Shown piece by piece: positions 6,111 through 54,482 of a stretch of DNA of 64,000 nt. Below the pieces are notes generated by a model. The model ran no database searches. It was not told the origin of the DNA and saw only the letters and a program-made list of their open reading frames with translations. Position numbers and translations under genes: made by a program. How positions within the stretch are numbered: the first letter of the stretch is position 1; every line of letters starts with the position of its first letter. The stretch covers positions 1,963 through 65,962 of the forward strand of contig CAMUYN010000001.1 of NCBI GenBank assembly GCA_947165005.1. The letters run 5' to 3'. Origin of the DNA: an uncultured Bacillota bacterium. GTDB taxonomy: Bacteria > Bacillota_I > Bacilli_A > RF39 > UBA660.

Positions 6111-7715
6111 CTAATTTATCATATCAATAAATTCATCTAATGAAGTAGAATCATATATATGATATCTAGGTATTTTATATTTATCATCATCTCTAGTAGC
6201 TTTATAATCCCCACCAGTAAATGCCACTTTATATCCCATTTCTTTTAATACACTTATAACTTTGTCATTATAAACATACATAGGATAACAAAAAGCATTA
6301 TCTGTACCTATTTCATTTTTAGAAATAGTTAGATCTTCTTTTATTTCTTCTCTTGATGAACAAAGTAATTTAGAACCTCTTGCTTCACTATCACATGCAC
6401 CACCAGAATGCATGTTATAAGTATGTGATTCTACATCTAAATTTGGTGATATATAATTACTATATTTATGCCATCCAGCTATTAAGAATAGTGTTGCATG
6501 CAGATCATATTTTTCTAGTAATGGTATTAATTTATTACCATTATCAAGTCCTGTACCCATAGCACCATCATCAATAGTAAGAAGTACACTTCTATTAGGA
6601 AGTTCTATTTCTCCATACATCCATTTAATAAATTCACTCATAGTTAATGTTTTAAATCCATTTACTTTTAAATAGTATAATTCTTTTTCAAAGTCTTTAG
6701 TATCCATACAATTTCCTTCACCGCAATATTCTCCTAGTGAAGAATCATAGAAGAAATGATAGTTTAATACCGCTATAGACGTAGCATTACCTTCTTTATT
6801 TCTTAAATTATGGGCATAATTAGTAGTCAAATCTATATAACTAATTACTTCTCCATCTATTATCTTCTTTATTGTTTCATTAGTAGTTTCACTAGTTATC
6901 TTATACATAGATATACTATTTTTTGTACCTTTTTTAGTACTTGCATTATCATTTTTATAAACATAATCTCCAAAATCTTTTTCTACATATATATCATATT
7001 TTTTAGCTATTTTTATTACTTCTTCGTTTTTAGATAATATTAATAATCCATTATTATTTATATTAATTTTATCATTAAACCATAATGTAAAATCTTCTAA
7101 AGTAATACCAAAATTACCATTTTCTTTTAAATATTTAAATTGAGCTTCTATATTATCATTATTATCTTCATAGTATAAAATACTCATATAATCTTTTTTA
7201 GTCATTTTTAGATTTTTTTCAGATTTAATATCATCTTTTTTTATACCATATAAATTATTTAAAAATCTAATATAGTAATAGTTATCATCTAAATATAAAA
7301 CATCATGTGTTTTACCTTTATTAATCTTTATAGATTTCTTATTATCAATATAATAAATTGTGTTATCTTTTAATGTAATAACTTTACCCATCATCACATA
7401 ATAATCTTTTATTTTAGTATCTTTTTTCTTAGTTTTTTTAACATCATTATAATAAATATAATAATCAGAATCTTTTATTTTATAATATTTGCCATTATTA
7501 TATTTATCTAATTCAAAATATGTATTTTTATATATTTTACCTATTTCTTTCTTTTTAGAGTCATATAAATTAGTATCTTTATTAACTATTATGTATTTAT
7601 TATAATTCTTTTTAATTTTATGCTCATTAAAAAGAATTAGTATACATAAAGTTAAACCTACTAATAGTACTAATACTAATAAAACTCTAAATATATTAAT
7701 TCTTTTCTTTTTCAT
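6111..7715 (-). CDS. Membrane-anchored polysaccharide deacetylase family protein (NodB domain)
   Basis: It has an N-terminal TM helix (INIFRVLLVLVLLVGLTLCILILF) and a K/Y/N-rich middle region. The C-terminal region LLTIDDGAMGTG...HTYNMH resembles NodB motifs. RBS AGGTGG precedes ATG 7715. Confidence 0.7.
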   Translation of the reverse strand: MKKKRINIFRVLLVLVLLVGLTLCILILFNEHKIKKNYNKYIIVNKDTNLYDSKKKEIGKIYKNTYFELDKYNNGKYYKIKDSDYYIYYNDVKKTKKKDTKIKDYYVMMGKVITLKDNTIYYIDNKKSIKINKGKTHDVLYLDDNYYYIRFLNNLYGIKKDDIKSEKNLKMTKKDYMSILYYEDNNDNIEAQFKYLKENGNFGITLEDFTLWFNDKININNNGLLILSKNEEVIKIAKKYDIYVEKDFGDYVYKNDNASTKKGTKNSISMYKITSETTNETIKKIIDGEVISYIDLTTNYAHNLRNKEGNATSIAVLNYHFFYDSSLGEYCGEGNCMDTKDFEKELYYLKVNGFKTLTMSEFIKWMYGEIELPNRSVLLTIDDGAMGTGLDNGNKLIPLLEKYDLHATLFLIAGWHKYSNYISPNLDVESHTYNMHSGGACDSEARGSKLLCSSREEIKEDLTISKNEIGTDNAFCYPMYVYNDKVISVLKEMGYKVAFTGGDYKATRDDDKYKIPRYHIYDSTSLDEFIDMIN

Positions 7716-32140: not shown

Positions 32141-32173
32141 TATAAAAAAAAGATTGATTATTTTTCAATCTTT
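32141..32173 (-). terminator. Intrinsic terminator of the noc/parB-like gene
   Basis: AAAGATTGA-N7-TCAATCTTT followed by a T-run on the minus strand. The stop codon lies in the loop. Confidence 0.75.
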
Positions 32174-33090
32174 ATTATGAACTCAAATAGCTTATCAAAT
32201 TCATAAGAATCATAGGTAGAAACATATCCTTCTTCCTTTAATTCTTCAACGAATTTCTTTATTTTTTCTTGTAAAACATCTTTTTTGTCATTGTCTGTTT
32301 CTTCATCAAGTAATAATGTTTCTTCCATTTCAATAGAAGGATTTGTTTTATCCTCAATTTCTGGATATACCTTATCTTCTATTTCAGGTATATCTTTAAA
32401 TAGATTATCAAAATCTATAGTATCACTTTTACTTGATGGACCAAGCGTTTTCCCAACACTTCTAATTGGTTCTAATTCATCAGTTTCTTTAAGGCTATCT
32501 ATTAATCTATCAGTATCTCTGACATTTAGTCTTTCTTTTATAATTGTTCTTAATAATTCTACTTGTTCTTCTTTGTCTTCTATTCTTAATAGACTTCTTG
32601 CATGTCTTTCACTAATCTCATTATTTAATAAGGCGTCTTGTACTTCATCAGATAAATTTAATAGTCTTAATTTATTAGAAATTGCTCCTTGAGTTTTGCC
32701 CATTCTAACAGCTAACTCTTCTTGAGTTAGATAACCTCTATCTAATAATTTTTTATATGATTTAGCTTCTTCTAAAGCAGATAAATCTTTTCTTTGAATA
32801 TTTTCTACAATAGCTACTTCTGCTGATTCATTATCATTTAAATCTATTACTACTGCTGGTACTTTAGTTAAACCTGCGATAAAAGACGCTTTAAATCTTC
32901 TTTCACCGGCAATTATTTCGTATTTATTACCTACTTTTCTTAAGACTAATGGTTGAATAATACCATGTTGTCTAATAGATTTTGCTAGTTCATTTAATGC
33001 ATCTTCATCAAAAGATAATCTTGGTTGAAACCTATTAGGGATTATATCATCTAAAGATACTTCAATTATTTCTTTTTCCATATTATTCAT
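32158..33090 (-). CDS. noc: ParB/Spo0J/Noc-family protein with a Noc-like recognition helix
   Basis: It contains IIPNRFQPR, QHGIIQPLVLRK and YEIIAGERRFKA (CTP-binding GERRxR box). The HTH region GKTQGAISNKLRLL...ISERHARSLL and the C-terminal end EFDKLFEFIIKIEK resemble B. subtilis Noc more than Spo0J, by comparison from memory. Confidence 0.85.
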   Translation of the reverse strand: MNNMEKEIIEVSLDDIIPNRFQPRLSFDEDALNELAKSIRQHGIIQPLVLRKVGNKYEIIAGERRFKASFIAGLTKVPAVVIDLNDNESAEVAIVENIQRKDLSALEEAKSYKKLLDRGYLTQEELAVRMGKTQGAISNKLRLLNLSDEVQDALLNNEISERHARSLLRIEDKEEQVELLRTIIKERLNVRDTDRLIDSLKETDELEPIRSVGKTLGPSSKSDTIDFDNLFKDIPEIEDKVYPEIEDKTNPSIEMEETLLLDEETDNDKKDVLQEKIKKFVEELKEEGYVSTYDSYEFDKLFEFIIKIEK

Positions 33091-33135
33091 ATTATCAACT
33101 CACTTCTTATTCTTATACATATATAATAATATAAT

Positions 33136-33163
33136 AAAAAATCCATTTTTTCAATGGATTTTT
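33136..33163 (-). terminator. Intrinsic terminator after the 181-aa gene
   Basis: AAAAATCCATT-N6-AATGGATTTTT with a T-run on the minus strand. Confidence 0.7.
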
Positions 33164-33164
33164 A

Positions 33165-33710
33165 TTATTTTAATATTTTTTTCTTTTTTTCATCTTGTAT
33201 AGATGACTCATATTTTATTAATAGTTCTAAATAATTTCTTGCATTTAATAATCTTGCTTTTCTTTTAACATCACTAAATAAAATATTACCATCTTCATCT
33301 AATTCTTTTTTACAATAACCAACAGCTAATCTCTTATAATTAAAATCTTCTTCAGACATTTTTTTTGATTTTTCTTTTATTTCTAATTCTGATAAAAATG
33401 TATTTTCTGTTTCTTTTATAAACTTACTTGTTTTATCTGTTTCGTTTTGAAAATATATTGATATTTCATCAAAATCTTCATTTTTTAATGTCTTTAATTT
33501 TTCTTCTAATAATTCTCTTATTGCTATTTCTAACAACTCTGAATTGTAATCTTTTTTTAATTCACTGTTTATTTTTATTTTCTTTAATCCTTCAAATAAT
33601 TCTAGGTATGAAAGATTACTAATTTGATCCTTTAAGGCATTCTTATAATCCTCCATTTTTATTATCATTTCTTTATTTGAATTCATTATTTGTTCTAATT
33701 TATTTTTCAT
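33165..33710 (-). CDS. Hypothetical K/E-rich, predicted helical protein (181 aa)
   Basis: The ORF sits between rsmG and the ParB-family gene, in the position normally taken by noc/soj. No Walker A motif and no family recognised. Confidence 0.55.
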   Translation of the reverse strand: MKNKLEQIMNSNKEMIIKMEDYKNALKDQISNLSYLELFEGLKKIKINSELKKDYNSELLEIAIRELLEEKLKTLKNEDFDEISIYFQNETDKTSKFIKETENTFLSELEIKEKSKKMSEEDFNYKRLAVGYCKKELDEDGNILFSDVKRKARLLNARNYLELLIKYESSIQDEKKKKILK

Positions 33711-33719
33711 AATTTCCCC

Positions 33720-34427
33720 CTATAATGGTCTATTTTTTATTTCATTATAATTTCTTGGATACTTAGTTTTAGTATCACTTATTTTCTTTATAATTACTAA
33801 ATTTCTAATACTATTTTCTATTGGTAAATTAAATGAAACTATATCTTCTAATTTTGAATTTAATTCGTTTATTGAATTAGAAGCTTCTTCTAATTCACCT
33901 TCAATGGATCCCTTCATCGGAATAAAATATCCATTTATTTTAACTAAAGGAATACACATTTCATTTAATATATTTAATCTTGCCATAGCTCTACTTGTAA
34001 CAATGTCGTATTTATTTCTATTATTTCTAGCAAATATTTCTGCACGTTCTTTGCAAATAAATAGGTCTTTTAAATTTAGTTTTTCCTTTACTAAATAAAG
34101 AAATCTAACTCTTTTTTGCAATGTTTCTACTAAAGTTATTTTAAGCTGTGGAAAACATATTTTAAGAACAATTCCTGGAAAACCAGCTCCTGTTCCTATA
34201 TCACATAAAGTTAGTCCTTGAGTAAGGTCAATTGCCTTAATTAGAGTTAAACTATCATAGAAATGTTTAAGATAAACATCCTCTTTTTCAGTAATTCTAG
34301 TTAAGTTAACTTTTTCGTTATAATCAATTAATAACTCATAGAACTCTTCTAGCTGTTCTAACTGCTTTTCACTAAGATGAATATTTAATTTTTCTACTTC
34401 TTTTATAAAATTATTTAGATTCATCAA
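33720..34427 (-). CDS. rsmG: 16S rRNA (guanine527-N7)-methyltransferase RsmG
   Basis: It contains NLTRITEKEDVYLKHFYDS, DIGTGAGFPGIVLKI and VTSRAMARL. It overlaps the mnmG stop. Confidence 0.92.
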   Translation of the reverse strand: MMNLNNFIKEVEKLNIHLSEKQLEQLEEFYELLIDYNEKVNLTRITEKEDVYLKHFYDSLTLIKAIDLTQGLTLCDIGTGAGFPGIVLKICFPQLKITLVETLQKRVRFLYLVKEKLNLKDLFICKERAEIFARNNRNKYDIVTSRAMARLNILNEMCIPLVKINGYFIPMKGSIEGELEEASNSINELNSKLEDIVSFNLPIENSIRNLVIIKKISDTKTKYPRNYNEIKNRPL

Positions 34428-42470: not shown

Positions 42471-42549
42471 AAATTGCCTGTTTTTGCTTGAAATATAAGG
42501 AAAATAAGGTATAATTAGTTATGAAAGTACCTGGGGGAAGGTGAAACAA

Positions 42550-43932
42550 ATGGAGAATAAGGATCTTGTTTGGGAAAAATTTCTTAGTATTATAAAAAAA
42601 AGAGTTTCATCTATTGGTTATGAGACTTGGTTTAAAGAGACTAGATTACATTCTCTAGGTGAAGACGCAGTCATTGTTGTTTCCACAATAGCTCATAAAA
42701 AACACTTATCAGAAAGCTATGGCGATATAATAAGTGAAATATTAAATTCTATAACAGGTACTAACTTTAATTTAAAATTTGTATTAGAAAGTGAAATAGA
42801 TAAGGAAGAACATGAAGAATTAGTTGAAAAACAAGAAGAATTAGGTGTTCCTTATAATAGTTATAAAGATGCTAACTTAAATCCCGAATATAAATTTGAA
42901 AACTTTATAGTAGGAGAGAGTAATAAGTTTGCACAAGCTACTGCACTTGCAGTCGCGGAAAACCCTGGTAAAATGTATAATCCTTTATTTATATATGGAA
43001 ACAGTGGATTAGGTAAAACTCACTTGATGCATGCAATAGGTAATTATATTGTGGAAAATACTAATAAAAAAGTATTATATGTTTCATCTGATACATTTAT
43101 AAATGATTGGATAGGTATAAATAGAACTACTAATGGAAATAATTTTGATAAAAAAGAATATTTTAATAATAAATATAGAAATGTAGATGTATTAATAATA
43201 GATGATATACAATTTTTAGGTAATGCACCTAAATCTCAAGAAGCATTTTTCCACACATTTAATACATTATTTGATAATAAAAAGCAAATTATAATATCTA
43301 GTGATAATTCTCCAGATGATTTAAAGAATCTTGAAGATAGATTAAGAACTAGATTTAACTGGGGATTAAAAGTAAATATTTTTCCACCAGATAATGAATT
43401 AAGAAAAAGAATATTAAAAAATAAACTGACAAATATGAATTTTGCACAACATATGTCAGAAGAAGCATTTGATTATATAGCAAATACTTGCCAATCAGAT
43501 GTAAGAGAATTAGAAGGAACTTTAACTAGAGTATGTGCTTATGCCACAATATTTTTCCAAGAAGAAATAACGTTACAAACAGTTATTGATGCAGTAGGTA
43601 AGACAAAATTCTCTAATAATAGTAATCCTTATGGTAGTGGATCTAATAGTTATGATATAAATAGAATACAAAAATGTGTTGCTAATTATTATAATGTAAC
43701 TGTTGAAGATCTAAAATCTAAAAAGAGAGTAGCAAATATTGCATTTCCAAGACATATAGCTATATATTTATCAAGACAATTAACTGATGAATCTTTCCCA
43801 AGAATAGGTATGGAATTTGGTGGAAGAGACCATTCTACAGTAATGAGTTCTTGTGATAGAATAGAAGAAGAATTAAAAAGTAATAAACAATTAGAAAAAG
43901 TAATAGAGGAAATCAAAAGAAGATTAGAATAA
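42550..43932 (+). CDS. dnaA: Chromosomal replication initiator protein DnaA
   Basis: It contains YNPLFIYGNSGLGKTHLMHA, DVLIIDDIQFL and the C-terminal region IAFPRHIAIYLSRQLT...GGRDHSTV. ATG 42550 after GGGGGAAGGTG is the probable start. A TTGAAA-16 nt-TATAAT promoter lies at 42488-42515. Confidence 0.97.
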   Translation: MENKDLVWEKFLSIIKKRVSSIGYETWFKETRLHSLGEDAVIVVSTIAHKKHLSESYGDIISEILNSITGTNFNLKFVLESEIDKEEHEELVEKQEELGVPYNSYKDANLNPEYKFENFIVGESNKFAQATALAVAENPGKMYNPLFIYGNSGLGKTHLMHAIGNYIVENTNKKVLYVSSDTFINDWIGINRTTNGNNFDKKEYFNNKYRNVDVLIIDDIQFLGNAPKSQEAFFHTFNTLFDNKKQIIISSDNSPDDLKNLEDRLRTRFNWGLKVNIFPPDNELRKRILKNKLTNMNFAQHMSEEAFDYIANTCQSDVRELEGTLTRVCAYATIFFQEEITLQTVIDAVGKTKFSNNSNPYGSGSNSYDINRIQKCVANYYNVTVEDLKSKKRVANIAFPRHIAIYLSRQLTDESFPRIGMEFGGRDHSTVMSSCDRIEEELKSNKQLEKVIEEIKRRLE

Positions 43933-44070: not shown

Positions 44071-44085
44071 ATGGAGGTAAGGAAT

Positions 44086-45207
44086 ATGAAATTTAGTATT
44101 AAAAAAGAAATATTATTAGAAAACTTAAATAAGGTATCACATGCAGTATCAACTAAAAATGTTATACCAGTATTATCAGGTATTAAATTTGATTTAACAA
44201 AGAAAGGATTAACACTACTTGCTAGTGATAATGATATAGATATTAAAGTATTTATTGATAAAAAATATATAGATAATATAGATGAAGAAGGATCTATAGT
44301 TATTCAAGGTAAATTCTTATTAGATATTATTAGAAAGATTCAAGATGGTATTATTAATATAGAAGTAATTGATGGTCTTAAATTAATGTTATATAATGAA
44401 ACATCAAAATTTAATTTAAATGGAATTGATTCAGATGAATTTCCTAATATAAATATAGAAAAGAGTAATAATCCAATAGAATTAAATAAAAAAGTTATTA
44501 AAACAATGGTTAATCAAACTATATATGCAACTAGTACACAAGAAAGTAGACCAATACTTACAGGTATTAATTTAAAAATAGAAAAAGATATTCTTGAATG
44601 TATAGCTACAGATTCTTATAGATTAGCTAAAAAGAAAATAAAATTAGATAATCCTGTGGATAATCCTATTAATATAGTAATACCTAGTAGAAATATTGGA
44701 GAATTAGTAAAAATAATTGATGATGAAGAAGAAAATATAAATATTCATATATTTACAAATAAGATATTATTTGAATTTGATAATATATTATATCAATCTA
44801 GATTATTAAATGATGTTTTCCCTAATATATCTAGATTAATACCAAGTGAATTTAAACTAATAATTGATGCAAATCTTAATGATTTATTTAATGTTGTGGA
44901 TAGAGCATCATTATTAACAAGTGAAAAAGAAAAAAATGTTATTAAATTTGAAACTGAAGGTAATACATTGATAGTAACTAGTAATACCCCTGAAATTGGT
45001 AGAGTAGAGGAAAAACTAGCTATTAAGAAAAATAATGATGAAGAAATAAAAATAGCATTCTCTGCAAAACATATGATGGATGCTTTAAGAACTATTGATA
45101 GTAAAAATGTAAAAATATTATTAAATAGTGAAATTAGTCCAATAATATTAAATACTGAAGATAATGATGACTTATTACAATTATTAATGCCAATTAAGAC
45201 TTATTAA
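44086..45207 (+). CDS. dnaN: DNA polymerase III beta sliding clamp
   Basis: It contains MKFSIKKEILLENLNKVSHAVSTKNVIPVLSGIKF...ATDSYRLA...LLMPIKTY. GGAGGTAAGGAAT-ATG at 44086 is the probable start. Confidence 0.95.
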   Translation: MKFSIKKEILLENLNKVSHAVSTKNVIPVLSGIKFDLTKKGLTLLASDNDIDIKVFIDKKYIDNIDEEGSIVIQGKFLLDIIRKIQDGIINIEVIDGLKLMLYNETSKFNLNGIDSDEFPNINIEKSNNPIELNKKVIKTMVNQTIYATSTQESRPILTGINLKIEKDILECIATDSYRLAKKKIKLDNPVDNPINIVIPSRNIGELVKIIDDEEENINIHIFTNKILFEFDNILYQSRLLNDVFPNISRLIPSEFKLIIDANLNDLFNVVDRASLLTSEKEKNVIKFETEGNTLIVTSNTPEIGRVEEKLAIKKNNDEEIKIAFSAKHMMDALRTIDSKNVKILLNSEISPIILNTEDNDDLLQLLMPIKTY

Positions 45208-45352: not shown

Positions 45353-45805
45353 ATGATTTCTTATGAGATTAATCGTAATACTATGGCATTAATACCAATT
45401 AATGATGATCAAACTAAAATTATAGAAAGGAATAAAATATTTATTATTAATGAAAATATTATGGAAATTATAAAAAATAGTTGTGAATTTTTTGGCAGTT
45501 CTTATTTAGGAAGAAAAGAAGGTACTAAAAAATTGACAGGTATAACACATAAAAGTCCTATAATTATAGAAGAAAGTAATAATATAATATATTTTCCAAC
45601 GGAATCACCTAGATTAAATAGCTGCTCATGGATAGGTTTTAATAATATAAAGAAATGTATTAATAATAATGGTAAAGGTACAATTATATTTGATAATGAT
45701 AAAAGTTTAGATTTAGATATATCATATAATTCTTTAGATAATCAAGTACTTAGATCATCAAAACTGGAATCAATATTACGAAAAAGATTAAATACTGCAA
45801 TTTAG
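45353..45805 (+). CDS. comK: Competence transcription factor ComK family protein
   Basis: YEINRNTMALIP, SCEFFGSSYLGRKEGT, GITHKSPIII, IYFPTESP..C.W and ISYNSLDNQV match ComK hallmarks as I recall the B. subtilis protein. Confidence 0.85.
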   Translation: MISYEINRNTMALIPINDDQTKIIERNKIFIINENIMEIIKNSCEFFGSSYLGRKEGTKKLTGITHKSPIIIEESNNIIYFPTESPRLNSCSWIGFNNIKKCINNNGKGTIIFDNDKSLDLDISYNSLDNQVLRSSKLESILRKRLNTAI

Positions 45806-48953: not shown

Positions 48954-51431
48954 ATGGATCACAGTAGAGATAGATTAGAAGAAAACAATATAGTTAATGA
49001 AATTGAAACATCCTTTCTAGAATACTCAATGAGTGTTATTGTATCTAGAGCTTTACCAGACCTAAGAGATGGTTTAAAGCCAGTTCATAGAAGAATTTTA
49101 TGGTCAATGTATGAATCTGGATATACTCCAGATAAACCTCATAAGAAATCGGCAAGAATTGTCGGTGATGTTATGGGTAAATACCATCCACATGGAGATT
49201 CTTCAATATATGAAGCAATGGTACATATGGCACAAGATTTTAGTTATAGAAACTGTTTAGTTGATGGCCATGGTAACTTTGGTAATATTGAAGGTTATGG
49301 CGCAGCAGCAATGCGTTATACTGAAGCAAGATTATCAAAAATTTCATTAGAATTATTAAGAGATATACAAAAAGAAACAGTAGATATGGTTCCAAACTTT
49401 GATGAATCAGAGAAAGAACCAGCTGTATTACCATCAAGATTTCCTAATATATTAGTTAATGGAACAATGGGTATAGCAGTAGGTATGGCTACTAATATTC
49501 CACCACATAACTTAGGAGAAGTAATTGATGGATGTGTTGCATATATAGATAATCCTAATATAGATGTTCTAGGATTGATGCAATATATTAAAGGACCAGA
49601 CTTTCCAACAGGTGGAATAATCCTTGGTAATAGTGGTATTAAAAAGGCCTATGAAACAGGAAGAGGTTCTATTACTATAAGAAGTAAGGCTACTATTGAA
49701 GAAACTGATGGAAAACATCAAATAATTATTGATGAAGTTCCATATGGAGTAAATACTTCAACATTAAAAAATAAAGTAGCAGAATTAGTACATAATAAAG
49801 TAATTGATGGCATATCTGATTACCATACTGACTTAAAAGATGGTGTTAAGATAACAATTACTTTAAAGAAAGATGCTAATGCACAAGTAGTATTAAATAA
49901 TTTATATAAACATACAGATTTCCAAACAAATTTTGGTATTATCTTCCTAATGCTAGATAAAGGTGTACCAAAAACACTTGGATTAAAAGATATAATTGCT
50001 AAATATATAGATTATCAAAAAGAAATAATTATTAGAAGAACTAGATATGATCTTAAAAAAGCACAAGATAGAGTACATATATTAGAAGGATTAAAGATAG
50101 CTCTTGATCATATAGATGAAGTAATTAAACTAATCAGAGGTTCTAAGACAGATGACATTGCTAGAGAAGGATTAATGAAACAATTTGGTTTAACAGAAAT
50201 CCAAGCAAACGCTATTCTAGAAATGAAGTTAAGAAGATTAACTGGATTAGAAAGAGAAAAGATTGAAGAAGAATTATCTGAATTATTAAAGAAAATTGAG
50301 GAATATAATGCTATTCTTGCTAGTGAAGAAAAAGTATTAGCTATAATCAAGGAAGAATTATTAGATATTAAGAATAGATATTCTGATGAAAGAAGAACTA
50401 AGATTGATATGACTGCTATAGATTTCATCGAAGATGAATCATTAATACCAGTTGAGGATATAATTATTAACTTAACTAATAAAGGTTATATTAAGAGATT
50501 ACCAATTGATACTTACAAAGTACAAAACAAAGGTGGAGTAGGTGTTAAAGGTATGCAAACTCAAGAAGAAGACTTTGTTACTAAGATGGTTACATTAAAG
50601 ACTCATGATCATGTATTATTCTTTACTAATAAAGGTAAAGTATATAGAATTAAAGGTTATGAAGTACCAGAATTTAGTAGACAAGCTAAAGGATTACCAA
50701 TAATTAATCTATTACCAATCGAAAAAGATGAATATGTAAGAGAAATTCTTCCGGTTCAAGCTGATGATAGTGTTAAAGATAAATTAATTACATTTGTTAC
50801 AAAGAAAGGTATAGTTAAGAGAACAAATATCTCTGAATTTGAAAATATAAGAGTAACTGGTAAAATAGCTATAACTTTAAAAGAAAATGATGAATTATTA
50901 TCAGTATTCTTAACAGATGGTAACCAACAAATCTTAATCGGTGCATCAAATGGTAGAATGGTTAAGTTCAACGAAGATGAGATAAGAATCTTAGGTAGAA
51001 CTGCAAGTGGTGTTAAGGGTATAGATATACCAGAAGAAATTAATTGCGTAAGTGCAGATGTTATTACTGAAGATGATGAAATACTTATAATTACAGAGAA
51101 TGGTTATGGCAAAAGAACAAATGTTCGTGAATATAGATTAACTCACAGAGGTAGTAAAGGTGTTAAAGGATTAAACGTTACTGAAAAGAATGGCCCATTA
51201 ATATCAATAAGTAAGGTTGAAGATGATTCAGACTTAATTATAATTACTAATTCAGGTATAGTTATAAGAATTCCACTAGATCAAGTATCTAAAATGAGTA
51301 GAGTAACTCAAGGAGTTAGATTAATAACATTAAAAGATAATCAAAAAGTAGCTACAGTTTCTATATCGAAAAAAGAAGTAGAAACAGAAAATACTGAAGA
51401 AACACAGCAAGAATCATCAACTGAAGAATAA
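48954..51431 (+). CDS. gyrA: DNA gyrase subunit A
   Basis: It contains [28 protein letters not shown] and [10 protein letters not shown], plus C-terminal beta-pinwheel repeats. Confidence 0.97.
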
Positions 51432-51441
51432 TATTAAACAA

Positions 51442-51457
51442 TGTTTCACGTGAAACA
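51442..51457. promoter_or_regulatory. parS site A (perfect TGTTTCACGTGAAACA)
   Basis: It is an exact 16-mer, embedded in a 26-bp perfect palindrome at 51437-51462, followed by a T-run (terminator-like) after gyrA. Confidence 0.85.
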
Positions 51458-51476
51458 TTGTTTTTTTACTAAAAAA

Positions 51477-51492
51477 TATTTCCCGGGAAATA
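51477..51492. promoter_or_regulatory. NBS-type palindrome A (perfect TATTTCCCGGGAAATA)
   Basis: It is an exact 16-mer within the 28-bp palindrome AAAAAATATTTCCCGGGAAATATTTTTT at 51471-51498. It matches the Noc-binding site consensus as I recall it. Confidence 0.7.
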
Positions 51493-51551
51493 TTTTTTTT
51501 GATAATTTTTATTATTTATGATATATTTAATGTGAAACTGGTGATAAAAAT

Positions 51552-52094
51552 ATGAAAAATTACAAAGAATTAGGTTTTGATAGTGAATATGAGATGAATT
51601 TATATCATGACGTATGTTGTGAAATGAATTATGTAATAGAATTTTCATCATTTCAAGATCTACTAAACTATTTAGAAACTAATAATATAAAGAATATAAA
51701 GAATCAGCAAACAAAAAGTCAATGTAATACATTTATAAGAAAAAATAATTTATTAGAACTATTAATGGAAGTGGAAGAACAACCATTAGTTAATAGATAT
51801 ATAGAATTATATAAATATCATGCCAATTTCTATTCTATATCAAGTAATGTTATCAAACTTAATGGAATCTTACTTACAAATGCAATAAAAAGTAAAAATG
51901 ATGAACAAGCTAATTTTTACAAAGCAGAAATAAGCAGAACATTAGATATAGCAGAAGTTCACCTACGTTGCCTAACATATATTGTTGAACAAGTATATGA
52001 TAAAGTACCACTTGATTCATATCAATTTATTAAAGGAATTGAATATGTACAAAGTGAAGTATTTAAGGATAATGGTAACTTTGGTTTGAGTTAA
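51552..52094 (+). CDS. Hypothetical protein (180 aa, predicted helical)
   Basis: The ORF has a GGTGA RBS and a TTGATA-17 nt-TATATT promoter abutting NBS A. No family recognised. Confidence 0.55.
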   Translation: MKNYKELGFDSEYEMNLYHDVCCEMNYVIEFSSFQDLLNYLETNNIKNIKNQQTKSQCNTFIRKNNLLELLMEVEEQPLVNRYIELYKYHANFYSISSNVIKLNGILLTNAIKSKNDEQANFYKAEISRTLDIAEVHLRCLTYIVEQVYDKVPLDSYQFIKGIEYVQSEVFKDNGNFGLS

Positions 52095-52097
52095 AAA

Positions 52098-52113
52098 TAT
52101 TTCCCGGGAAATA
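52098..52113. promoter_or_regulatory. NBS-type palindrome B (perfect TATTTCCCGGGAAATA)
   Basis: It is an exact 16-mer 4 nt after the stop codon of the 180-aa ORF. Confidence 0.7.
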
Positions 52114-52122
52114 TTTTTTATA

Positions 52123-52138
52123 TGTTTCACGTGAAACA
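52123..52138. promoter_or_regulatory. parS site B (perfect TGTTTCACGTGAAACA)
   Basis: It is an exact 16-mer 9 nt after NBS B. Confidence 0.85.
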
Positions 52139-52183
52139 TTAATATGAATTGACTTTTTAAATAAAATAAAGTATATTAATATT

Positions 52184-52254
52184 GCACAACGGAGAACTTG
52201 GAATCAGGTCAGGATAGAAATATAGCAGCCTTAACATTTAATTTCCGTGTGTGC
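52184..52254 (+). ncRNA. ffs: Signal recognition particle RNA, small (4.5S-like) type
   Basis: GGTCAGG-ATA-GAAA-TAT-AGCAGCC reproduces the SRP domain IV core (E. coli GGUCAGG-UCC-GGAA-GGA-AGCAGCC). The closing helix pairs GCACAACGGAGAA with TTTCCGTGTGTGC. A TTGACT-17 nt-TATATT promoter is at 52149-52177 and a T-run terminator at 52256-52263. The position upstream of tadA/dnaX matches Bacillus. Confidence 0.88.
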
Positions 52255-52273
52255 ATTTTTTTTGGAGTAAAAT

Positions 52274-52669
52274 ATGGACGTAATTGCAGAATTAAATAAA
52301 CTTATGGATATAGCTATTAAGAAAAATGAAGTTCCAGTAGCGTGTATCATTACAAAAAATAATAAAATAATAGCAAAAGCATATAATAAAACAAATAAAT
52401 CTAATAATATATTAGATCATGCAGAAATAATTTCAATCATCAAGGCTTCAAAAAAGATAAACAATTGGAGATTAAATGATTGTATAATGTATATTTCATT
52501 AGAACCATGTTCTATGTGCAAGGAAGTTATTAAAAAGTCTAGAATTAAGAAAGTAATATATTTTTCAAAGCAAAATGGGCATAAAACCGAATCTGATATT
52601 GATTATGAATATATAAATAATGATAAAATATCAAATAAATTATCGAATTTTTTTAAAGGTATTAGATAA
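52274..52669 (+). CDS. tadA: tRNA adenosine(34) deaminase TadA (short form)
   Basis: It contains VPVACIIT, HAEIISI and PCSMCKEVI (zinc-binding CDA motifs). Confidence 0.88.
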   Translation: MDVIAELNKLMDIAIKKNEVPVACIITKNNKIIAKAYNKTNKSNNILDHAEIISIIKASKKINNWRLNDCIMYISLEPCSMCKEVIKKSRIKKVIYFSKQNGHKTESDIDYEYINNDKISNKLSNFFKGIR

Positions 52670-52676
52670 ACAGTAA

Positions 52677-52692
52677 TGTTTCACGTGAAACA
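52677..52692. promoter_or_regulatory. parS site C (perfect TGTTTCACGTGAAACA)
   Basis: It is an exact 16-mer within a 30-bp perfect palindrome at 52670-52699, directly after tadA. Confidence 0.85.
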
Positions 52693-52714
52693 TTACTGTT
52701 TTAATATTCAAAAA

Positions 52715-52730
52715 TATTTCCCGGGAAATA
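52715..52730. promoter_or_regulatory. NBS-type palindrome C (perfect TATTTCCCGGGAAATA)
   Basis: It is an exact 16-mer. It is followed by TTTTTGATA, as copy A is. Confidence 0.7.
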
Positions 52731-52832
52731 TTTTTTTGATATCTATAACAAAAAAATATGAGATTTTCACAATTATTTACTTAATCTATATAGGTAAATG
52801 TGTTATAATTATTAGGGAAAGGAAAGATAAAT

Positions 52833-54482
52833 ATGATATATCAAGCTTTATACAGAAAATATAGACCAAAGACATTTGATGATGTTTGTGGTCAAGAAAT
52901 AATTACTACAACTTTGAAGAATGCAATTAAATATAATAAGTTAACACATGCATATCTATTTATTGGACCTAGGGGTACTGGTAAAACAAGTATTGCAAAA
53001 ATATTTGCTAAAACAATTAACTGTGAATCAAATAAAGATGGAGTTTCTTGTGAAAAATGCGATATTTGTAAAATGAGCAATAATAATGAGAATGTTGATA
53101 TTATTGAAATGGATGCAGCTTCTAACAATGGCGTAGATGAAGTGAGAGAAATTAAAAATCACGTTACATATATGCCAACATTCTCAAAATATAAAGTATA
53201 TATTATAGATGAAGTTCATATGTTATCTGCAGGTGCTTTTAATGCACTGCTTAAAACATTGGAAGAACCACCAAAACATGTGATCTTTATATTAGCTACA
53301 ACAGAACCACAAAAAGTCCCTTTAACTATAATCTCTAGATGCCAATGCTTTGAATTTAAATCTATACCAAATAATTTAATAGAGGATAGAATTAAATATA
53401 TATGTAAGGAAGAAAAAATAAAAATATCTGATGAATCAATTAAACAAATAGGAGAAGATTCAAACGGTGGATTAAGAGATGCAATTGGCCTATTAGATCA
53501 ATTGAATTCATACACTAACGGAAATATTAATTTAGAGGATGTTCTTAAGATAAATGGTAGAGTTAATCAAGATACATTTAAAAATATATTCGATTATATA
53601 ATAAATAATAATATAGAAGAATTATTTAATTTAAGTGACAAATTTAATTCTGAAGGAAAAGATTTTGTATTAATTTGTGAAGATTTAATTAAGTATCTAA
53701 AAGATTCACTTATTGAATACCAAATTAATAATGAAAATGAGTTGGTAGGGCAACTGGGAAAAGAAAAAGTAACAAAGATAATATTCGAGGTTAGTGATTA
53801 TATCGGTCGTATGCGAAATATTAGAGAAAAAAAAATATTTTTTGATTTATTATTAATAAAGATAGGTAGTATTATAAATACAAATGTTCGTGTTGAAGAA
53901 TCTAAACCTATTTTAATAGAAAAAAAAGAAGAAATTAAAGAAATCAAAAATAATGAGTCTAAAATAGAAGCACAAAAAGAAGAAATTAAAAAAACAGCAC
54001 ATATAATGGATGAGAAATATATTAAATATAATGAATTAATGAAAATAAGATTAAACAATATATTAGCTCAAGCAGATAGAAACTCCCTAAAGAGTTATTT
54101 AGAATTCATCAATAATCTAGAAGCAAACCTAGATAATCTAGAGGAAAGACAAATATATAATTTATTATTGGATTGTGAAATAGTTGCTGGATCCAGTGAT
54201 GGTTTAGTTATTACAACTGACTCTAAAATTTTACTAGAAGAATTATATGACAATCTATCTAATATTGAAAATTTAATTAGCAATAAGTTAAATACAAATA
54301 TACATGCATGTTTTAATTTAAATGATGATTGGATAAAAACAAGTGAAGTATATAGAAAAAAGATAAGAAATAAAGAAAAAATTGAATTATTAGATGAATC
54401 AGAAATATTAAAGAGTATACTTGATACAAATGAAGTTAAGAAAAATGAATTTGAAGATTTATTGGAGATAGGAGAAATGTAA
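52833..54482 (+). CDS. dnaX: DNA polymerase III subunits gamma/tau
   Basis: It contains YRKYRPKTFDDVCGQE, GPRGTGKTS, a C-x-C zinc module and IIDEVHMLS. Confidence 0.95.
   Translation: MIYQALYRKYRPKTFDDVCGQEIITTTLKNAIKYNKLTHAYLFIGPRGTGKTSIAKIFAKTINCESNKDGVSCEKCDICKMSNNNENVDIIEMDAASNNGVDEVREIKNHVTYMPTFSKYKVYIIDEVHMLSAGAFNALLKTLEEPPKHVIFILATTEPQKVPLTIISRCQCFEFKSIPNNLIEDRIKYICKEEKIKISDESIKQIGEDSNGGLRDAIGLLDQLNSYTNGNINLEDVLKINGRVNQDTFKNIFDYIINNNIEELFNLSDKFNSEGKDFVLICEDLIKYLKDSLIEYQINNENELVGQLGKEKVTKIIFEVSDYIGRMRNIREKKIFFDLLLIKIGSIINTNVRVEESKPILIEKKEEIKEIKNNESKIEAQKEEIKKTAHIMDEKYIKYNELMKIRLNNILAQADRNSLKSYLEFINNLEANLDNLEERQIYNLLLDCEIVAGSSDGLVITTDSKILLEELYDNLSNIENLISNKLNTNIHACFNLNDDWIKTSEVYRKKIRNKEKIELLDESEILKSILDTNEVKKNEFEDLLEIGEM

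Follow-up and report, generated by a model that had tools for sequence, protein, structure and literature searches.

We analysed a stretch of 64,000 nucleotides (nt; hereafter the window) from assembly GCA_947165005.1 of an uncultured Bacillota bacterium, in which an open reading frame (ORF) for a protein of 180 amino acids (aa), here called gene X (51552-52094), lies among palindromes of two kinds, parS and Noc-binding sites (NBS). The elements of the locus follow each other in the order gyrA, parS A, NBS A, gene X, NBS B, parS B, ffs, tadA, parS C, NBS C and dnaX. Doublet A has the order parS-NBS and doublet B the order NBS-parS; four palindromes thus bracket the ORF. An earlier reading of the window, made from its letters only (the sequence-only reading), had described this mirror-symmetric bracket, with doublet B starting 4 nt after the stop codon. 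Both descriptions hold: all four palindromes are perfect, and the 14-bp core of NBS B begins 4 nt past the stop codon of gene X. The new elements here are a gene embedded in the array, the family to which it belongs and the way in which it has evolved.

Palindromes, signals and neighbouring genes

The upstream core gene, gyrA (48954-51431, forward strand), is an 825-aa ORF, whose orthologue in a second sample (L029) matches the Pfam families DNA_topoisoIV and DNA_gyraseA_C. It is followed by parS A (core 51442-51457), which lies in a hairpin (51436-51463) with a 12-bp stem and a run of seven T residues (fold -12.5 kcal/mol, z = -5.3) and probably doubles as the gyrA terminator. NBS A (51478-51491), with the extended palindrome AAAAATATTTCCCGGGAAATATTTTT, matches the Noc-binding-site consensus perfectly, and the 3' end of its 18-bp palindrome is 58 nt upstream of the ATG of gene X. 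As the sequence-only reading had remarked, the T-run of NBS A continues directly into TTGATA (51499-51504), the putative -35 box of a predicted sigma-A promoter (51499-51527, forward strand); an extended -10 box, TGaTATATT, follows after 17 nt, and the promoter agrees with the consensus in 10 of 12 positions plus the TG extension. A ribosome-binding site (RBS), GGTGA (51540-51544, forward strand), stands 7 nt before the ATG; in the orthologues this position reads GAGGG or AGGGG. Gene X itself is on the forward strand. Downstream of it comes NBS B (52099-52112), a perfect match whose A-run includes the gene X stop codon; with its weak hairpin and T-run (-6.7 kcal/mol) it is probably the terminator of gene X. 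It is followed by parS B (52123-52138), again a perfect match.

The segment 52149-52270 (forward strand) contains the promoter of ffs (TTGACT, 17 nt, TATATT) and the gene of the small signal recognition particle RNA (Rfam RF00169, 55.4 bits, 52173-52270). Next to it lies tadA (52274-52669, forward strand), an ORF of the tRNA adenosine deaminase family, whose identical orthologue in L029 matches dCMP_cyt_deam_1. Doublet C (52677-52729) consists of parS C (52677-52692), located in a hairpin with a 15-bp stem (fold -17.7 kcal/mol, z = -6.5), and NBS C (52716-52729); T-runs adjoin the stems of both parS A and parS C, and the parS C hairpin probably doubles as the tadA terminator. The downstream core gene is dnaX (52833-54482, forward strand), an ORF whose orthologues match DNA_pol3_delta2 and DNAX_ATPase_lid in Pfam. 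The sequence-only reading had also pointed to the junction TTTTTGATA after NBS C. The junction is indeed there, but the sister species G205 does not share it, and in that species the conserved dnaX promoter-like sequence lies ~100 nt farther downstream. A 62-aa ORF in this region ('MFHVKHY...FPGNIF', 52676-52864) is an artefact of a frame running through parS C and NBS C, and in locus L045 there is a comparable artefact, an ORF beginning inside parS A.

The window contains three perfect parS sites (TGTTTCACGTGAAACA; core starts at 51442, 52123 and 52677) and three perfect NBS (ATTTCCCGGGAAAT; core starts at 51478, 52099 and 52716). All three parS sites agree with the 16-bp palindrome TGTTNCACGTGAAACA without mismatch. 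In dinucleotide shuffles of the window the chance expectation, with up to two mismatches allowed, was 0.02 for parS and 0.09 for NBS. In the whole assembly (874,825 bp, 88.6% complete), searched with up to one mismatch, parS and NBS occur nowhere except at these six positions, a cluster of at most 1.3 kb. Since dnaA (42541-43932) and dnaN (44071-45207) are in the same window, the cluster (51.4-52.7 kb) is ~7.5-9 kb from the dnaA/origin region. The assembly encodes a soj-spo0J (ParA-ParB) pair on contig C8 and two Noc-like ParB paralogues, one on contig C1 beside rsmG and one on contig C31. For parS, the sequence, the cognate ParB and ParA and the origin-proximal position are all present; for NBS the sequence is present, a scatter over the chromosome and a membrane-targeting helix on Noc are not. 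The six palindromes are predicted loading sites for the ParB of the genome (parS) and for its Noc-like ParB paralogue (NBS), which together make up a composite centromere.

The best-scoring model for both Noc-like proteins is TIGR04285 (Noc), with 275 and 286 bits, which is below the cut-off of 315 bits. Their helix-turn-helix (HTH) reads Q..K..R where ParB has R..M..G, at positions that we take to be those determining specificity; these were reportedly defined by Jalal and co-workers in 2020. Both proteins start 2-6 residues ahead of the first match to the Noc/ParB_N model, and the start is only ~8-10 residues ahead of the ParB N-domain box. With such a short N-terminus the Noc-like protein is therefore without the region of an N-terminal membrane-targeting helix.

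It is interesting to compare this arrangement with the Noc-NBS nucleoid occlusion system of B. subtilis, which was reportedly described by Wu and colleagues in 2009. The NBS palindrome found here, TATTTCCCGGGAAATA, is identical to the presumed consensus of that species, a string that we did not find in the text of PMC8429893. The likeness extends to the ParB paralogue, which scores best with the Noc model. The differences are more numerous. Noc of B. subtilis has NBS sites scattered around the chromosome and an N-terminal membrane-targeting amphipathic helix (PMC8429893, Jalal et al. 2021), whereas here there are only three NBS in 875 kb, all within a span of at most 1.3 kb and each beside a parS near the origin, and the Noc-like protein has no membrane-helix region and does not reach the Noc cut-off of NCBIfam. 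The ParABS centromere of Firmicutes (Spo0J/ParB of B. subtilis) is similar in its perfect 16-bp parS, its soj-spo0J pair and its origin-proximal sites. It differs in that our locus has just three parS, all within 1.3 kb and each paired with an NBS, and in that two of these parS appear to be built into terminator hairpins.

The assembly contains two rsmG plus Noc-like pairs, rsmG-181aa-noc in the window (32158-34100) and mnmG-rsmG-noc on the short contig C31 (L002, 95-1833), and most members of the genus have only two ParB-family genes. The copy on C31 may be a true duplication or may come from contamination by a related organism; the contamination of the assembly is estimated at 3%.

Gene X and its protein family

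At the base composition of this genome a chance ORF as long as gene X is expected 0.0075 times per genome. The composition of gene X is native (24.1% GC, compared with 26.0% for the genome). Its GC content at third codon positions is in the range of the genome, and its codon adaptation index is at the 17th percentile. A foreign composition was considered and rejected, all three measures being inside the genome's range.

The sequence-only reading had called gene X an orphan, and when the protein was used alone as the query of a word-indexed search, the only match was indeed the gene X product itself, which made an exhaustive search necessary. That search (phmmer against 1.84 billion representatives) contradicted the orphan status: it detected 19 homologue clusters of 141-258 aa, mostly ~180 aa, with 26-39% identity. 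Further clusters were added by profile searches, bringing the number to ~30 (HMMER), all of the same ~180-aa, acidic, all-helical kind. The family shares the motifs LGF..E..LY.DVCC, L..LF.KV...L.DR.IE.Y.Y..N and YI. A model made with AlphaFold2 (AF2) from the single sequence was poor (predicted local distance difference test, pLDDT, 52) and was superseded by one from an alignment of 25 sequences, with a pLDDT of 88 and a predicted template modelling score of 0.80 for the gene X product. In this model a small N-terminal helical domain is followed by three long helices (residues 79-113, 117-151 and 153-170). The isoelectric points in the family are 4.5-6.3; it is uniformly acidic, which argues against direct DNA binding.

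The sequence-only reading had recognised no family for the protein, and none was found in the curated collections searched. The gene X product had no match in Pfam, and no Pfam family was matched by more than one of 25 family members. The best hit in NCBIfam had E = 0.033 and 14 bits, far from the 126-bit cut-off, and the best in PHROGs had E = 0.07, neither being significant; the PADLOC models gave no match. A sequence profile search of the PDB yielded no significant match (best E = 0.02, across 67 residues), and Foldseek searches of the PDB and BFVD gave E = 0.3-0.5 at best, with TM scores of at most 0.44, to generic helical bundles such as ferritins and designed bundles. No DNA-binding, HTH or other known domain was found in the gene X product by Pfam scan. 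Given this, the acidity of the protein and the distribution of gene and sites described below, the proposal of the sequence-only reading that gene X serves the partition or nucleoid-occlusion machinery as an accessory factor is not supported. ORF 51552-52094 is a real gene; it encodes a soluble and entirely helical acidic protein, whose family is small and uncharacterised. A previously unannotated family of ~180 aa is defined, which has a confident predicted fold, no structural relative and an unusually fast evolution. Two genes of similar size, the 181-aa gene beside noc and the 163-aa gene beside soj, were tried as relatives of gene X and rejected (hhalign probability below 1% for each).

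A genus-wide array and a single insertion

In 40 relatives parS and NBS are few per genome and clustered within 1-2 kb. We fetched the locus from 12 other species of the genus, those having a site, and all 12 proved to have parS, NBS or both in the spacers that have them here (gyrA|ffs-tadA and tadA|dnaX). In ten of these 12 species gyrA and ffs are adjacent, without a gene in between. In G203 and G201 the arrangement is parS-NBS-parS, then ffs-tadA, then again parS-NBS-parS. As the sites occupy the same spacers across the genus, the conserved 'cage' surrounds ffs-tadA and not gene X. The sites are a genus-wide centromere, which is not present on account of gene X and has no need of it: the array works without gene X in the related species. 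Genes between or under parS sites are normal in known centromeres. As in these relatives, the ancestral gyrA-ffs spacer would have read parS-NBS-parS-ffs. The alignment with G203 suggested a degenerate third parS, ATATTTAATGTGAAACTG, between NBS A and the ATG (51524-51541); this candidate was rejected, the other gene-bearing lineages having nothing parS-like there. In a sister group within the genus there is a variant palindrome, TGTTCCACGTGGAACA, in two or three copies ~50-100 nt apart inside the coding sequence of dnaX (positions 6172, 6226 and 6274 of L017 from G047; 2446 and 2548 of L020 from G211; 6391 and 6484 of L021 from G209). These copies look parS-like and are embedded in an essential gene.

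Gene X was found in the order gyrA-X-ffs-tadA-dnaX in eight distinct loci (that of the source genome, G000, and L031, L032-34, L035, L036-38, L044, L045 and L046). The closest homologues of gene X are those at this same locus, and all eight fall in one sub-clade. In the tree of TadA, DnaX and YbaB, which does not include L044-L046 (found after it was built), the gene-bearing lineages join G205 and G207 in a single clade supported at 100/100, and the other ten species of the genus are outside. Profile searches did not detect the family in 13 other genomes of the genus (the ten outside the clade, G205, G207 and one whose locus was not fetched), nor in sampled sets of 400 genomes each from the family, the order and the class.

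The junctions of the inserted gene are well preserved. In all eight loci NBS A is invariant and stands at -73 to -76 from the ATG, with 6-7 nt between the NBS core and the -35 box, and the core of the downstream NBS begins 5-6 nt past the stop codon. The parS sites are outside both NBS in seven of the eight, with parS B present in the same number, and the distance between parS and NBS varies from 35 to 114 nt. The promoter (TTG.., a 17-nt spacer and the extended -10 box TG-n-TATA.T) is kept in the six aligned lineages.

The protein evolves much faster than its surroundings. Compared with G000, GyrA is 89-99% and DnaX 80-95% identical across the syntenic loci, and the gene X product only 31-40%, the G000 copy being the most divergent of the group; within the sub-clade the identity is 31-59%. 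The synonymous divergence (dS) of gene X is 0.59-1.28, overlapping that of the neighbours (0.27-1.6), which indicates co-inheritance. Its nonsynonymous divergence (dN) is 5-15 times that of the neighbours, and dN/dS is 0.40-0.93 for gene X and 0.03-0.29 for the neighbours, ratios that are rough because dS is near saturation in this genome of 26% GC. The variation is concentrated at the tip of the helical hairpin: residues 101-130 have a mean pairwise identity of 0.20-0.29, residues 81-90 one of 0.92.

Such divergence, above all that of the G000 copy, could be taken as a sign that the open frame is spurious or the remnant of a decaying gene. We find this scarcely credible. The gene is intact in eight lineages (180-183 aa) with its invariant residues retained, dN/dS is below 1, both the promoter and the RBS have been kept, the AF2 model has high confidence, so long an ORF is hardly to be expected by chance, and an identical copy of the G000 gene was obtained from a second sample (L029).

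The slot occupied by gene X has received other genes. In G205, nested within the gene-bearing clade, it holds an unrelated ORF of 222 aa (ORF222; L011, 4127-4795), for which we found no family match. ORF222 was tried as a diverged member of the gene X family and rejected (BLASTP E = 16, hhalign probability 0.3%, no six-frame profile match). Homology between the slot of G205 and the gene-bearing loci extends only to the T-run past parS A and resumes at the stop codon and NBS B, so the breakpoints of the swap coincide with binding sites. NBS B follows the stop codon of ORF222 at the same spacing as in the gene X loci. The second NBS of the gyrA-ffs spacer occurs only alongside gene X and is missing in G205. 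Outside the sub-clade, G211 has a 338-aa DHH/DHHA1 phosphoesterase gene in the same spacer (L020, 4500-5516). A gene of the ComK family is located between dnaN and recF in the window (45353-45805, Pfam E = 9e-45), and L033 and L036, two loci of the sub-clade, have it as well. For the cassette swap in G205 natural competence would offer a route.

We think it probable that gene X is a vertically inherited cargo gene, which was inserted once into a pre-existing centromere array. The starting state would have been the genus-wide parS-NBS-parS array between gyrA and ffs, and a single insertion of promoter, gene and second NBS at the base of one sub-clade would have produced parS-NBS-[promoter-gene]-NBS-parS. 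Vertical inheritance with rapid divergence would have followed and, in G205, a single replacement by an unrelated ORF with breakpoints at the binding sites. The bracket would then be mirror-symmetric because the gene went into an existing array of palindromes, and the sites would stay perfect because they serve the centromere, besides doubling as terminator hairpins. If the DNA lying between the two 26-bp NBS palindromes, which are identical, were excised, exactly the parS-NBS-parS of G203 and G201 would result, which is consistent with recombination at NBS as the mode of insertion but is not proof of it. Gene X would be transcribed from its own sigma-A promoter abutting NBS A, with termination at the NBS B hairpin, and its product would most likely bind another protein through the variable hairpin, in a lineage-specific adaptive or conflict-type role. 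The alternative offered by the sequence-only reading, a cassette inserted between gyrA and ffs, is thereby upheld in the evolutionary sense: within the genus the gene was found in one sub-clade only, the relatives have parS-NBS-parS-ffs, and an unrelated gene took its slot in G205.

In several respects the locus resembles the lineage-specific accessory genes found in variable slots between core genes: gene X is confined to one sub-clade, an unrelated ORF has replaced it in a nested lineage, a third gene (the DHH phosphoesterase) sits in the same spacer elsewhere, and the flanking gyrA and ffs are highly conserved. It differs from them in that the slot is inside a centromere array with breakpoints at protein-binding palindromes, and in that no link to an integrase, a transposase or a phage was found here.

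The more distant homologues are elsewhere: between whiA and clpP (L025), between murC and scpBA (L026), beside recG (L041), between an mqsRA/Panacea toxin-antitoxin module and a flavodoxin gene (L042) and beside an AI-2E transporter gene (L043). On a metagenomic contig of 21% GC two paralogues of gene X form a tandem pair (L027, 320-1435; hhalign probability 99.7%). There was no parS or NBS near the homologues in these six loci, no recombinase, integrase or transposase gene in any locus of the family that we inspected, and no match to the family in phage or plasmid collections (tblastn) or in IMG/VR. The idea that all contexts of the family belong to chromosome biology was weakened by the toxin-antitoxin/flavodoxin, transporter and recG contexts. 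A check proposed with the sequence-only reading was whether gene and doublets co-occur in relatives. They largely do not: ten of the 12 relatives have sites without the gene, distant members of the family have the gene without sites, and the two occur together only within the one sub-clade, from a single insertion.

Gene X may be a gene of biological conflict. The stretch from parS A to NBS B would then be a variable hotspot with exchangeable accessory genes, and the protein, a factor of defence, anti-defence or immunity type, would be subject to diversifying selection. As to function this is a guess, which would be compatible with the passenger reading, and we hold it to be quite unlikely. 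It would account for the dN/dS of 0.4-0.9 with the hypervariable hairpin tip, the sporadic distribution of the family, ORF222 and the DHH phosphoesterase in the same spacer, the neighbouring toxin-antitoxin module (MqsR/MqsA-Panacea) of one homologue, the tandem paralogues and the acidity, which is reminiscent of DNA-mimic proteins. It is at odds with the lack of any PADLOC or PHROG match and of any match in the phage, plasmid and IMG/VR collections, with inheritance in the sub-clade, which is vertical and not by frequent exchange, and with contexts that are mostly housekeeping loci and not defence islands.

Some observations weigh against a mere cargo gene. Apart from the rough rate ratios, four of the seven contexts of the family contain genes of DNA transactions, namely whiA, scpAB and recG and, at our locus, gyrA. 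The NBS-promoter and stop-NBS junctions are fixed within 1-3 nt despite the low identity of the proteins and the drifting distance between parS and NBS. Finally, the second NBS in the gyrA-ffs spacer is restricted to loci with gene X. Both the fixed junctions and this restriction would also fit a functional unit of NBS and gene.

Possible coupling of gene X to the ParB-family clamps

The last two observations lead to an alternative reading, in which NBS A, the promoter, gene X and NBS B form a regulatory unit. The CTP clamps of Noc-like protein and/or ParB would gate transcription, or the protein would feed back on the clamps, for instance as a clamp-locking or modulating partner. A precedent is KorB of plasmid RK2, a ParB-family CTP clamp, which silences promoters together with KorA or TrbA (PMC11790492, PMC13584720). 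The likeness is that a loading site of the ParB family adjoins a promoter here as well, so that gating of a small gene by a sliding clamp is conceivable. The differences are that our locus is a chromosomal centromere, where repression is a possibility in principle only, that it has no known clamp-locking partner, and that the gene X product lacks an HTH and shows no resemblance in Pfam to the KorA or TrbA families.

It is possible that occupancy by Noc or ParB regulates gene X, but functional coupling in the full sense appears unlikely to us. Besides the KorB precedent of promoter repression (PMC11790492), it draws on the constant distance between the NBS core and the -35 box in all eight loci, which is to be set against the drifting parS-NBS distance, on the second NBS, present only in gene-bearing lineages and missing in G205, where an unrelated ORF took the place of gene X, on the retention of intact gene X throughout the diversification of the sub-clade, and on the distant homologues that adjoin whiA, scpAB or recG. 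It must be noted, however, that all syntenic loci descend from one insertion, thus they count as a single evolutionary observation. Ten species of the genus run the array without gene X, no distant homologue has parS or NBS nearby, and the protein is acidic and has no HTH or other known domain. The gap of 6-7 nt leaves little room for insertions or deletions anyway, and relative to the predicted start site the NBS lies at about -43 to -56, not a classic repressor position.

A more specific form of the idea is a centromere-embedded regulatory module, in which an anchor-less Noc-like clamp, loaded at the NBS on either side, would control the rapidly evolving, acidic and helical gene X product, and this protein would bind and modulate ParB-family clamps or SMC loading. 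We regard such a module as very unlikely. If it were true, gene X would be a chromosomal counterpart of the clamp-locking partners of KorB, and the odd Noc of this clade would have a function; if there is no coupling, gene X is an ordinary lineage-specific passenger.

On the reading that we prefer, insertion of a cargo gene into an existing array, the locus shows that a mixed ParB/Noc centromere array tolerates an inserted, apparently transcribed gene, which was kept for a long time without the loss of any binding site. The gene X locus is a natural experiment on the coexistence of sliding CTP clamps and transcription. It also offers a compact system for testing a Noc-type clamp against an adjacent promoter, one NBS being 6-7 nt from the -35 box on a fragment of 0.7 kb.

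Several lineages (L032, 3165-3185; L035, 600-620; upstream regions of L031 and L036) have, overlapping the -10 box of the gene X promoter, an inverted repeat that changes symmetrically between them: it reads ATGAT..ATCAT in L032, ATGGT..ACCAT in L035 and TGATA..TATCA in L031 and L036, and it is absent in G000. This repeat may be an operator.

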